Shown here: in pieces, positions 16,305 to 24,924 of the stretch
How positions within the stretch are numbered: position 1 is the first letter of the stretch
How the letters are laid out: each line of letters opens with the position of its first letter
Assembly (NCBI GenBank): GCA_018262795.1
Contig: JADFDM010000001.1
Coordinates: 280,283-344,282, forward strand
Length of the DNA: 64,000 nt
Source: Sphingobacteriales bacterium
GTDB taxonomy: Bacteria > Bacteroidota > Bacteroidia > Chitinophagales > LD1
Direction of reading: 5' to 3'
Made by a program: the position numbers and the translations under genes
The notes under the pieces: generated by a model
The model's database searches: none
What the model was told of the DNA's origin: nothing
Seen by the model: only the letters and a program-made list of their open reading frames with translations

Positions 16305-19300
16305 TCAATCTTCCGTCAGGGTGCTTGCCTTCATCATTTCTTTTAACTGGGCATTATCCTGCGAGAGCATATCTACTGTATCTTGTAGGTCTTCAATCAT
16401 CTTTTGTTGTTCCTGCACGGCTTTAACCAAAGGCACTACAAACTCGGCATAACTGATTTTGTACACATCCTGCTCATTCTGTGGCGTGGTAACTCCCGAA
16501 AAGTTAAAGTTCGATTCTTTGGCGGCCTGTTCTACTTGTTGGGCCAAAAAGCCGGTGTATTGTATGCTCTCTTTGTTTCGCTTGGCCTCGTTCCAGTCTT
16601 TTGCATCCTCTTCGTTCTTTAATTTGAAATTGGTGATGGCTTCGTATTTGTCGAGGTCAAGGTGATAGGTAACCGGTTTAAGCCGTTTAATAAATTCAAG
16701 TCCCGGAACATTCTCTGTTACCTTTTTCTTTATTCGTTGATCTGAAATATTGCTCCAGTTGGTCCATCCGCCAGTCACTGTAACACTGGAATTTCCTAAA
16801 AGGGCAACATTGCTGGAAGTAGTCAGGCAGTTAGCTCCCACCACAGTTACATTGTGTTGTGTAGAGGTGCCACTATTAGGGTTTGCATTATAGCCAACTG
16901 CAGTATTTAGGTATCCTTGAGATAACACATCATCGGCACCATAACCCAGAGCGGTATTTTCATAACCGGTAGAATTGGCATTCATGCAGGTTCCAAGAGC
17001 TACATTGTAATATCCCGTGGTGTTGTTCGGCATAGAGCTATAGCCGGTGGCTGTATTATAGTAACCGGTTGTGTTGTCATACATACTGGTGTAACCTATA
17101 GCTGTATTTCGGTAACCATTTGAAACGCTGGTAGGGTTATTATGGTATAAAGAATAATTACCTATAGCTGTATTATAGGTGCCGTAAGCTGCATTTCCAT
17201 TAGCATATGATTGGTAGTACATAGCATAATAACCCATTGCACAATTATAGCTGGCATAGGTGTTAAGATACAAGGCAGAGTAACCTATAGCAGTATTACT
17301 ACCTCCCTCCGCATTATACCGCATAGAATTATCGCCAATCGCAGTATTTGCGGATCCTGTTGTATTTGAAAACAGGGAGTAAAGCCCGGACGCTGTATTG
17401 TAATTACCTGTCAGATTATTAAACATAGAATAATAACCAACAGCTGTATTAGATGCCCCGGTTGTATTCTCTCGAAGTGAAGCATATCCTACTCCGGTAT
17501 TGTAGGAACCTGAGGTAAGGGAGGTAAGACACAAAGCCCCCACAGCCGTAGTGTTTTTTGCAATGGTAGCGGAGGTCATAGCGGCATAGCCCACCGCTGT
17601 ATTTTCCCCGGTACTTGTATAGCTATATAGGGCAGAGTCACCTATGGCTACATTTTGTCTTGAAGTGGATGCATTATACAAGGCCTTGTTACCTATGGCC
17701 ACATTTTGATAGCCATTACCTATGTTGTACATGGCCGAATGTCCCACGGCTACATTGTGATAACCTGATGTAATGTTATATCCTGATTGATACCCTAACA
17801 TAGTATTCATCTCCGGGGTGGATGCTGTAGCTGTACTGCCGAACAATGCTTCTTTGCCGAAAGCGGTATTCTCACTTCCGGTGGTATTATTATTTGCCGC
17901 GAACTGTCCCATCACTGTGTTATCACTTCCTGTCGTATTATCCTGTCCGGCATAAGCTCCTACATAGCTATTGCCAACGGCCGTAGTGCTGCTTTGTAAG
18001 GTGTAGTAGCCCACTGCTGTATTCTGCTCACCGGTGGTGTTCGAGTTCATAGCATCGGTTCCTACTACCGTATTTCGGTAGCCGCTGGTGTTTGTCCCTA
18101 ATGAATTAAACCCGATGCTCACATTGCTATATCCGGTATTGTTTTGTAAGGCTTGGCTGCCGATAGCTGTATTCCAATAGGTTGAGTTGTTACTATAAAG
18201 CGCATGATATCCAATGGCCGTGTTATGAAAACCGTTAGTATTGGCGAAGAGCGATTTGGAGCCCACTGCCGTATTGTTCTCTCCAAACGTGTTGCTGAAT
18301 AAAGAAGAATCACCCACAGCCACCAGAAAACTTTTTTGAGTGTTGTTATACAGCGACCCGCTTCCTACGGCTACATTATGATAGCCGGTCACATTTAGCA
18401 GTAGAGATTGATAACCTACAGCTGTATTTCCTGAACCGGTATTATTCCAACCTAAGGAGGCCTGGCCCACTGCTGTATTGGTGCCTCCAACGATGTTAGC
18501 CCCCAATGCTTCACTACCGAGTGCGGTATTTCCTGACCCGGTAGAATTTGAATTCAAACTATAATACCCTATTGCTGTATTTGAAATTCCTGTGGTGTTC
18601 GATTTGAGAGCCCAGTTGCCCAACGAAGAGTTATTAATACCGGTGGTGTTGAAATAAAGAGCCTGATAACCGGTGGCGGTGTTGTTGCTTCCCGTAGTAT
18701 TACTCCACAGCGTTTGATAGCCGGTGGCGGTGTTGTAGTTGCCGGTGTTAGCGCTGGCAGTACTGGAGCCACGTAGTGCTTCATAGCCAATCGCTACATT
18801 GTAGCAGGTAAAGGGAGTTGCGGCACTATTTGCATAGTACATGGCGTTATAGCCAACAACAGTGGCGTTAGAGCCGGCTATATTGGAAGTAAATGCAAGA
18901 TGTCCAAGAGCGGTGTTGTTGCTCCCTATAGTGTTTTTGTAAAGAGCTTGCAGTCCGATAGCGGTATTGTTGCTGCCGGATGTATTGAAAAAAAGGGCAT
19001 TCCCACCGAAGGCAGCATTGTTGATTCCCGTGATATTGTTCCACATTACTTGGTAGCCGAGGGTGCTATTATAGTTTCCTGTGGTGTTAGAGAATAGAGC
19101 TTGAGTTCCGATAGCTGTGTTCTGTCCTCCGGTAGAGTTGTTTTTAAGTGCCTCATTTCCGTTCGCTACATTGTTATTTCCACCGATGTTTTCGTACAGT
19201 GCACTGTTCCCTGTGGCGGTATTATACCAACCGGTAGTGTTAGAAGTAAGAGCATTTGATCCGATGGCAGTATTTCTGCTTCCAGTGCTGTTAGCATATA

Positions 19301-24300: not shown

Positions 24301-24924
24301 GCTGTTTCCTGTTGCTCCAGTTGCCCCCGTAGCTCCAGCTGTTCCCGTGGCACCCGGTAAGCCTGTTGCTCCTGTAATGCCTGTAGCGCCAGTAACACCG
24401 GTCGCTCCCGGATTGCCTTGAACCCCTTGTGAACCGGTCGCTCCTGTTGCCCCGGCAACTCCATTTTGCCCAGCATTACCTGTTGGACCCGTGGGGCCGG
24501 TAGGGCCGGGTAGGGCAGTGCCACCCGATGTTTCGGCATAGAGAGCATAGGGAACACTCAATAGCTGAGTGGAACCCATATTGAGGTAGTTGGTTCCTCC
24601 GGTAGGGTCGTATTCTACCAATAAATATTTATTGCCAATCGCCCAATTGATGTTAGGGAAAAGACCGATAGTCGGGTTTCCCAAACCAATTTTTAAAGTA
24701 AACAGACCGAATTGGTTTGTTACGGCTGTATGGGTTTCCTGATACTCCGGAAATCCCGGATTAATTCCGTTGTTAATGGTTATACGAACAGAAATATTTT
24801 GATTGACTAAAGGAGAACCGGAAGCATTACGGGCAACCGCCTGATAATTTACAGCTTGCGGTACCTGCGTAAACGCAACAATACCCATGGCTACCGCCAA
24901 AAGCGAGAGGATAAGTTTTTTCAT
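21382..24924 (-). CDS. Secreted collagen-like protein (Gly-X-Thr rich) with conserved Bacteroidota N-terminal domain and globular C-terminal domain
   Basis: Signal peptide; [14 protein letters not shown]...TNQFGLF...[12 protein letters not shown]-domain; roughly 900 aa of Gly-X-Y; about 140-aa beta-rich C-terminus. Confidence 0.9.
21820..24510. repeat. Degenerate 9-bp-period and larger tandem repeats encoding the collagen region
   Basis: Repeated blocks such as ccggttggacccgttggtccggttactccgtcatttcc, and a near-perfect 63-bp tandem at about 23086-23300. Confidence 0.9.

Follow-up and report, generated by a model that had tools for sequence, protein, structure and literature searches.

A tandem cluster of putative MAT-type fibre genes in an uncultured Chitinophagales bacterium

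Mosaic adhesive trimer (MAT) fibres have been described in Bdellovibrio bacteriovorus, which carries 21 of them (Caulton et al. 2024, PMC10769870). They are defined by a signal peptide, an N-terminal domain of ~130 amino acids (aa) that is conserved and rich in beta structure, and a trimeric shaft with capping loops of the motif V-G-G/N-pi-x-x-P-x-x-x-L, and their tip is an S74 domain with the SDxxxK motif in 13 cases and another tip in the remaining 8 (PMC10769870). This domain at the N-terminus is without a homologue in the PDB and is presumed to bind some element of the surface, and the Bdellovibrio MATs have been localised on the cell surface (PMC10769870). Supplementary Table S3 of the same work also lists MATs from the FCB group, namely the 'collagen-like' A0A7Y5J594 of Saprospiraceae, the 'S74-like' A0A239D1M7 of Dokdonia and A9E803 of Kordia (PMC10769870). 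A search for literature on the 'tail fiber domain-containing protein' in Bacteroidota found none. Here we describe a four-gene locus, encoding the proteins P0001 to P0004, in a 64,000-nucleotide stretch of DNA (the window; contig JADFDM010000001.1, positions 280,283 to 344,282, assembly GCA_018262795.1). We consider it reasonably probable that three cell-encoded MAT-type fibres and a small accessory protein are encoded here in tandem, and that the fibres are exported by Sec, trimeric, displayed on the surface and adhesive. The observations on which this reading is built are the gene order, the domains, the homology to MAT shafts, the absence of sorting domains, the conservation of one gene pair and the existence of a multigene mosaic family.

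The source genome (3.48 Mb on 19 contigs) belongs to an uncultured member of the Chitinophagales from sludge-type habitats and flocs. The locus was detected in at least two unrelated metagenomes, being near-identical in a sludge metagenome and present at low depth in a second sample, and short-read assemblies are interrupted at the collagen repeats of P0001. As the initial annotation had stated, the four open reading frames (ORFs) are co-oriented and tightly spaced; all are on the minus strand, with spacers of 10, 11 and 10 nucleotides (nt). In the order in which they are read, with the parts of each protein placed below it, they are as follows.

21382..24924, minus strand: P0001, a 1180-aa collagen-stalked fibre with signal peptide, Ig-like base domain, collagen rod and C-terminal knob
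24520..24864, minus strand: residues 21-135 of P0001, the 115-residue N-terminal base domain 'P1_N', a distant Bdello_MAT_N match
21802..24507, minus strand: residues 140-1041 of P0001, the collagen-like region with 290 G-X-Y triplets (Pfam Collagen)
21385..21801, minus strand: residues 1042-1180 of P0001, the 139-residue C-terminal globular knob
20703..21371, minus strand: P0002, a short fibre of 222 aa, in which the signal peptide is followed by the N-terminal peptide QNETQNPxxPFW (QNETQNPASPFWR), a single shaft unit with the capping-loop motif GNMGIGTAAPSEKLEV, and a head
20341..20691, minus strand: P0003, a small protein of 116 aa whose N-terminus is short and hydrophobic and whose remainder is rich in Thr, Ser, Pro and Lys
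16305..20330, minus strand: P0004, a 1341-aa long fibre with signal peptide, QAEVQNPTFPFWK peptide, two shaft units, repeats, S74 domain and C-terminal coiled coil
19926..20255, minus strand: residues 26-135 of P0004, the N-terminal peptide plus a shaft/capping-loop unit homologous to solved MAT fibres
16308..16745, minus strand: residues 1196-1341 of P0004, the S74 intramolecular chaperone (by PF13884, by its motif and by likeness to tail-fibre C-termini in PHROGs), with the codon of Ser1196 at 16743-16745

The locus is tied to the MAT fibres by its shafts. When compared with the PDB by sequence, the unit at residues 26-135 of P0004 matched five distinct sequences, all of them Bdellovibrio MAT fibres, and the aligned parts include the capping-loop motif. 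The best match was 8OND (Bd2133, 2e-11), followed by 8OJN/8ONB/8ONC (Bd3182, 5.8e-8), with further matches to 8OML and 8ON4 (Bd1334) and to 8OL4 (Bd2439). The shaft unit of P0004 has the pattern W..GN.G...NFIGT.DN...R.RTNN.ER....GNVGIGT..P...L.V., and the protein further carries ~55 seventeen-residue NTAxG repeats. Of the two peptide-bearing fibres, P0004 is thus homologous to the solved shafts, and P0002 carries the capping loop in the form GNMGIGTAAPSEKLEV. With respect to the C-terminal tip, the Peptidase_S74 match of P0004 (PF13884) reaches 27 bits against a Pfam cut-off of 22, and the SDxxxK motif is present as S1196-DQRIK, such that self-cleavage at Ser1196 of SDQRIK is predicted from the family; P0001 and P0002 have globular ends that are not of the S74 type. 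Contigs from a sludge metagenome substitute other sequence for two stretches of the P0004 repeats, 18479-18561 and 19472-19864, the second with 286 nt in place of 391, which suggests repeat-number or sequence variation between strains.

P0001 may be tied to the MATs through its base domain. P1_N matches the NCBIfam profile NF053851 (Bdello_MAT_N) with an E-value of 3.9e-8 and 33 bits over positions 4-79 of 162, and all seven P1_N paralogues of the genome match the same profile at 24-39 bits (E 1.5e-9 to 5.8e-5), as against 0 of 14 control genomes. A single-chain AlphaFold2 (AF2) model of P1_N is a seven-strand beta-sandwich (pLDDT 86). A fold search of PDB and BFVD gave no close fold for it, the hits being generic Ig-like or carboxypeptidase-regulatory-like sandwiches with TM scores of at most 0.55, and a sequence search of the PDB gave nothing significant; the N-domain of the Bdellovibrio MATs is likewise described as lacking PDB relatives (PMC10769870). 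The collagen rod that follows (Pfam Collagen, E 3.9e-115) has Thr in the Y position of 197 and Asp in that of 61 of its 290 triplets, and is interrupted by one globular break of 26 residues and six breaks of a single residue. The knob at its end is probably a trimerisation and binding tip; it has no match in Pfam or PHROGs and nothing significant in the PDB sequence search, and it is conserved in the relatives G011, G002 and L069. From these features we read P0001 as a putative collagen-stalked member of a wider MAT superfamily. Two further observations concern this gene. In G011 (L063, C266, 2-406), the closest relative, the knob of the collagen gene stops early, after ...GSYT, and a 747-aa antisense ORF within the collagen gene (21995-24238, plus strand) is spurious, because the DNA of the G-X-Y repeats has a GC content of 0.60.

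P0002 and P0004 are built differently at their N-termini, where a conserved peptide, QAEVQNPxFPFWK, is followed directly by the shaft unit. Neither protein has a Bdello_MAT_N match at E <= 0.1, and P0005, a paralogue of P0004 that is introduced below, has none at E <= 1 (NCBIfam). Because this domain is absent from both, we regard the two fibres as MAT-like with respect to shaft and tip, not as strict members of the MAT group. No Pfam family matched P0002. Its AF2 model, made from 13 sequences, has a beta-sandwich head of ~90 residues at positions 138-222, whose fold weakly resembles gp53 of phage AP22, the tips of R-pyocin fibres and the Helix pomatia agglutinin (E 0.013-0.4).

A number of points weigh against the view that this is a cluster of surface-displayed MAT-type fibres. 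The Bdello_MAT_N match of P1_N lies below the curated cut-off of 60 bits and covers about half of the profile, and P0002 and P0004 do without the MAT base domain. The AF2 model of P0002 is of low confidence (pLDDT 54). P0003 has no match in Pfam, NCBIfam or PHROGs and no recognisable fold or family, so that a role for it as chaperone or tether is a guess. Among 47 fibre loci there is no conserved non-fibre partner gene, and the sequencing runs that contain the locus are DNA metagenomes only, with 0 RNA runs. Finally, the surface location of the fibres is a deduction, and the periplasm could also be their end point.

As to export, the initial annotation had spoken of an unassigned route, which is a fair description. 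All four proteins begin with a hydrophobic, signal-like segment as read by eye from the sequence, P0003 with the weakest, and a Gln follows the likely cleavage site in P0001, P0002, P0004 and probably also in P0003. A Gln in this position is usual in Bacteroidota substrates of signal peptidase I. At E <= 0.1, the profiles of Pfam and NCBIfam found in the four proteins neither a sorting domain of the type IX secretion system (T9SS; type A, PF18962 and TIGR04183; type B, TIGR04131/PF13585) nor a YadA_anchor barrel. A true T9SS C-terminal domain does occur elsewhere in the window, as had been noted, and served as positive control: a 1925-aa protein at 41071-46848 has a type B sorting domain (TIGR04131, E 1.3e-13). 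A canonical lipobox was likewise not seen by eye in any of the four proteins, the LTLC of P0004 having Leu at -1. An export route is thus unassigned by sorting domain, barrel or lipobox, and the same holds for the Bdellovibrio MATs.

One alternative is a piggy-back form of type IX secretion, in which a separate, sorting-tagged protein encoded in trans carries or anchors the fibres; these would do without a sorting domain of their own since their C-termini serve to trimerise them. This alternative concerns the route alone, and we regard it as rather unlikely. What speaks for it are four proteins of the genome that share an N-terminal xYT(I/V)GE...TQGFxQP motif together with a T9SS sorting domain:

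C13:155108-155602: motif protein of 164 aa
C12:142666-147348: motif protein of 1560 aa
C19:158179-158700: motif protein of 173 aa, stand-alone
C14:1488-5525: motif protein

On C13 and C12 the motif protein is encoded immediately downstream of a P1_N-type fibre (the two fibres have 298 aa and 471 aa), and the one on C19, which stands alone, could act in trans. Moreover, T9SS-type cargo is frequent near fibre genes; with 10 members in 8 of the 47 loci, it is the only non-fibre family found in more than four of them. However, there is no gene combining motif and sorting domain in or beside the operon of the window, the P1_N domain, alongside which the partner is found, is missing from P0002 and P0004, any binding of fibres by the partner is putative, and just one of 76 sampled P1_N proteins has a sorting domain of its own.

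A barrel gene, of which the initial annotation had made no mention, is predicted close to the operon:

14485..15984, minus strand: P0006, a 499-aa DUF5723 predicted outer-membrane beta-barrel (PF18990, E 7.5e-29), 320 bp downstream of P0004

Members of the DUF5723 family have been predicted to form 16-strand barrels in one preprint; a PDB sequence search gave nothing significant for this family. The genome has three DUF5723 matches, and both close paralogues adjoin fibre genes. One of them (C7:672-3071, 799 aa), which has an OmpA-like C-terminal end as judged by eye, adjoins a fibre gene that is cut by the contig end. In relatives, the ~505-aa type is often found near proteins resembling T9SS cargo (L036, L038, L040) or near fibres (L031, L041), with no fixed synteny, and the 800-aa type adjoins the ATP synthase operon. 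We have rejected DUF5723 as a dedicated exporter or anchor, a fibre being nearby in 2 of 20 loci of relatives (L031 and L041) and none of these loci sharing other flanking genes of the window; a link of DUF5723 to the fibres is therefore uncertain.

The resemblance of P0004 to phage proteins raises the question of whether the locus is what remains of a prophage or tailocin, i.e., whether these are tail-fibre genes without a cellular role. The matches in PHROGs are strong, with phrog_4636 (tail spike) at 2e-148 for P0004 and phrog_4636, 23837 and 6002 for the repeats, and the S74 chaperone fits as well. Against this stand the surroundings of the operon, whose ten flanking genes belong to housekeeping and envelope functions (in Pfam, carbamoyltransferase, SAICAR synthase, PhoH, SAM hydroxide adenosyltransferase, DUF5723, a 10-bladed propeller, DUF6498, FloA, NfeD and a lipocalin-like protein; none is from phage). 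Among these ten genes there is no capsid, tail, baseplate or integrase gene, and the whole window has no tRNA gene. The claim that no phage structural genes are nearby was therefore correct, and a check for location inside a prophage or tailocin, which the initial annotation had named as a refuting case, found flanks without virion or tail genes. Furthermore, each gene product has a signal peptide, all ORFs are intact, some 15 paralogues are scattered over the genome, the two genes measured (P0002 and P0003, see below) are under purifying selection, and the N-terminal modules have no phage counterpart. We have rejected a prophage or tailocin origin on account of the flanking genes and the missing tRNA gene, and put its probability close to nil. 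The view of host-encoded, Sec-targeted, phage-fibre-like and probably trimeric fibres, by contrast, is supported.

The phage comparison also separates the parts of these proteins. The P0004 unit matches internal parts of tail-fibre families in PHROGs from residue ~20 onward, with the best stretches at 35-96, and its first ~20 residues, which hold the QAEVQNPxFPFWK peptide, have no PHROG counterpart; P1_N has none either. Since P1_N and this peptide are without a PHROG counterpart, and shaft and S74 domain have one, the N-terminal modules may have a cell-specific docking role. This bears on the possibility that the fibres are not surface-anchored adhesins but released or periplasmic material, such as fibres of a matrix or sheath, vesicle cargo or a hairy nap like that of BclA. 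Such a fate, which appears quite unlikely to us, would agree with the lack of any anchor domain in Pfam and NCBIfam, with the life of the organism in flocs, and with the collagen-plus-knob layout, which is that of released or nap-forming bacterial collagens; the NCBIfam matches of P0001 to SclB, SclA and Lcl are sub-threshold or driven by composition, and cover the G-X-Y region only. Yet the conserved modules behind the signal peptide, absent as they are from the phage homologues, suggest docking, and the homologous MATs of Bdellovibrio are on the cell surface (PMC10769870).

The most constant element of the locus is the pair formed by P0002 and P0003. There are 12 full-length homologues of P0002, with 56-81% identity. 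We compared seven independent contexts, i.e., this genome (G000), G011 (L063), the JGI contigs L068 and L069, and the Logan contigs L070/L071, L072, L103 and L104. In 7 of 7, an ORF of 101-108 aa begins within 10-16 nt after the P0002 homologue; it has a P0003-like hydrophobic start and low complexity and is weakly alignable to P0003. Against the G011 orthologues, dN/dS is 0.18 for P0003 and 0.11 for P0002, and the substitutions by codon position are 31/20/50 and 31/17/93, respectively. From its dN/dS and its codon-position pattern it follows that P0003 is a real, fast-evolving gene under purifying selection. It is not the orphan for which it had been taken, a positional and weak sequence homologue being present directly after each P0002 homologue examined. 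The Thr/Ser/Pro/Lys-rich remainder of P0003 is probably disordered. Triplets of the form D-(S/T)-(A/V/I/T), which we take to agree with the O-glycosylation sequon of Bacteroidota, are retained in P0003 (DTA and DSI) and in the majority of its positional homologues (in G011, DTV and DSV). Elsewhere in the genome, ORFs of 110-117 aa that bear a signal peptide and are rich in Thr, Ser and Lys lie directly 3' of other fibre genes (C14:83567-83899 and C2:135509-135862); they are P0003-like in character, their likeness in sequence not being clear.

The order of P0002 and P0003, together with the head weakly resembling the tips of pyocin and AP22 fibres, recalls the pairs of fibre and assembly chaperone in phages; P0003, however, is unlike any known chaperone and could equally be a tether. 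One may go further and regard the pair as an undescribed two-component module, with P0003 as an intermolecular folding helper, or as a surface tether or glyco-linker, of fibres that lack S74, and with QAE(V/I)QNPxxPFWKxxGN as a new docking or sorting signal to the outer surface of Bacteroidota. We put this forward tentatively and give it a small chance of being right.

Around the pair, the large fibres differ from context to context. In G000, G011, G002 and L069 the P0002 homologue has a collagen-knob gene upstream, and an S74 fibre takes the place of the collagen gene in L070 and L072. Downstream of the pair there is a large fibre with the N-terminal peptide in G000, L068/69, L070 and L072; in L103 and L104 the pair has no adjoining fibre at all. 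L068 has eight consecutive co-oriented genes, most of the fibre type, and in G011 no long S74 fibre follows the pair. Because the surrounding large fibres differ between contexts, the four-gene order is one state of a flexible tandem fibre cluster, of which P0002-P0003 is the only fixed core. The expectation of conserved co-occurrence in relatives therefore came true for this pair and not for the full four-gene order.

The same evidence bears on the earlier idea of a single appendage, a hetero-oligomer with a collagen stalk and exchangeable heads formed by all four products. The tight spacing of the genes would suit it, as would the recurrence of a collagen-knob gene upstream of a short fibre with N-terminal peptide and shaft in G000, G011, G002 and L069, and the combination of P1_N and shaft units in single polypeptides, which is found in four paralogues on contig 14. 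But each fibre is complete with a signal peptide, shaft and tip of its own, stand-alone genes encode P0005 and several P1_N proteins, and the composition of the cluster varies, with the S74 fibre upstream in L070 and L072 and no neighbouring fibre in L103 and L104. We thus abandon the notion of one stalk with interchangeable heads, which is very unlikely, in favour of separate MAT-type fibres encoded in tandem.

Transcription of the cluster would start from a predicted promoter element in front of P0001:

24962..24969, minus strand: -7 promoter element of the Bacteroidota type, TAAATTTG, ~38 nt 5' of the first ATG (pattern search, consensus match only)

A second TAAATTTG -7-like box, at 21357-21364 (minus strand), falls within the opening codons of P0002 and might serve P0002-P0003(-P0004) as an internal promoter, or be a chance match.

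Beyond the window, the fibres form a large and mosaic family. P1_N matches 23,315 representative clusters (at 50% identity) with E <= 1e-3 and 18,049 with E <= 1e-10, nearly always directly after the signal peptide (residues ~21-135); the lengths of these proteins range from 136 to more than 1,000 aa. The domains joined to P1_N in the sample of 76 proteins are diverse, with Collagen in 37, Peptidase_S74 in 20, YadA_head in 4, C1q, Lcl_C and gp53-like tips in 2 each and the T9SS sorting domain in the one mentioned above. The genome itself has the aforementioned ~15 fibre genes with shuffled modules, which include 7 P1_N proteins, 5 S74 ends and 4 proteins starting with QAE.QNP..PFWK (three of them in the window); further fibres start directly with the GIGT unit. 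Relatives of the same genus have between 1 and 19 matches to the N-terminal unit per genome. The pattern FWK..GN.G is also seen in fibre-like genes of metagenome-assembled genomes from Verrucomicrobiota, Acidobacteriota ('Acidoferrum') and Gracilibacteria (L091, L092, L095, L098, L100, L090), and the N-terminal unit is therefore not confined to Bacteroidota. Within the window, the family is represented once more:

61222..62688, plus strand: P0005, a paralogue of P0004 that has 488 aa and stands alone; it shares the N-terminal peptide and shaft unit of P0004 (80% identity), but has few repeats, and its S74 domain carries SDARFK

Behind P0005, at 62884-63999 (plus strand), begins a large Cys-rich secreted protein that continues past the window edge.

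To these observations the mechanism that we propose adds a trimeric state, self-cleavage, a surface location, an adhesive role and a role for P0003, all of which we infer. Each fibre would be exported by Sec by way of a signal peptide with Gln at +1. P0001 would trimerise outside the cytoplasm, the collagen rod zipping up from the C-terminal knob, and P0004 would be folded by its S74 intramolecular chaperone, which would then cut itself off at Ser1196. P0002, which is without S74, might depend on P0003 or be tethered by it. The fibres, which judging from their domains are probably trimeric, would sit on the cell surface, their variable C-terminal tips pointing outward, and the tips may bind other cells or polymers of the floc, by analogy with the MATs of Bdellovibrio.

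Several known systems share features with this locus. Phage S74 fibres and tailspikes such as the K1F endosialidase and T5 pb1 have the S74 domain and its motif, and the repeats of P0004 match phage families in PHROGs; the proteins here, however, have signal peptides and cell-specific N-termini and are accompanied by no virion genes. Pairs of fibre and helper, such as PA0620/PA0621 of R-type pyocins or the Tfa pairs of Mu or P2, have the gene order of P0002-P0003, but P0003 is shorter, is of low complexity and resembles none of the Tfa families in Pfam or PHROGs. The collagen-like proteins BclA of Bacillus, Scl1/Scl2 of Streptococcus and Lcl of Legionella have, like P0001, a G-X-Y rod rich in Thr at the Y position and a C-terminal trimerisation knob. 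P0001 differs from them in that it has no LPXTG in its sequence, no match to PF07603 (Lcl_C) in Pfam and no BclA-type N-terminal targeting motif, and has instead the MAT-like sandwich of P1_N. YadA-family autotransporters are trimeric, repeat-rich adhesive fibres as well, and 4 of the 76 P1_N relatives have a YadA_head, whereas the proteins here have no YadA_anchor barrel and the opposite polarity, their presumed base being N-terminal.

The closest likeness is to the Bdellovibrio MATs, i.e., Bd3182 with S74 and Bd2133, Bd1334 and Bd2439 without it. Both sets are chromosomal, have signal peptides and GxVGIGTxxPxxxL capping loops, form multigene mosaic families with either S74 SDxxxK or alternative tips, and have no assigned export or anchor route. 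The MATs of the FCB group in Table S3 come from the same phylum and fall into the same tip categories (collagen-like, S74-like), a likeness by listing and not by sequence. The earlier suggestion of an undescribed system therefore fails, since the MAT kind was described in 2024 and its members in the FCB group, including a collagen-like one, had already been noted (PMC10769870). The differences lie elsewhere. The host here is a floc bacterium of the Chitinophagales that is not known to be a predator, in P0001 a collagen rod stands in place of the beta-helical shaft, P0002 and P0004 have a short peptide and then a shaft unit in place of the ~130-aa N-domain, and the genes lie ~10 bp apart in a cluster, with a small partner gene after the short fibre.

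Four points consequently go beyond the published description of MATs: a putative collagen-stalked member whose placement has evidence behind it, the size of the P1_N family, a small partner gene in strict linkage and a short conserved peptide that replaces the base domain. MAT-type fibres, which have been studied in one predator only, are encoded in Bacteroidota and other phyla by gene clusters that number in the tens of thousands. The locus suggests that they are ordinary equipment of non-predatory floc bacteria, which would be relevant to the aggregation of sludge and to cell-cell attachment. Set beside the MATs of Bdellovibrio, the locus is a compact test set, with one fibre that has a base domain, two that have the peptide only, and one small, strictly co-inherited partner.

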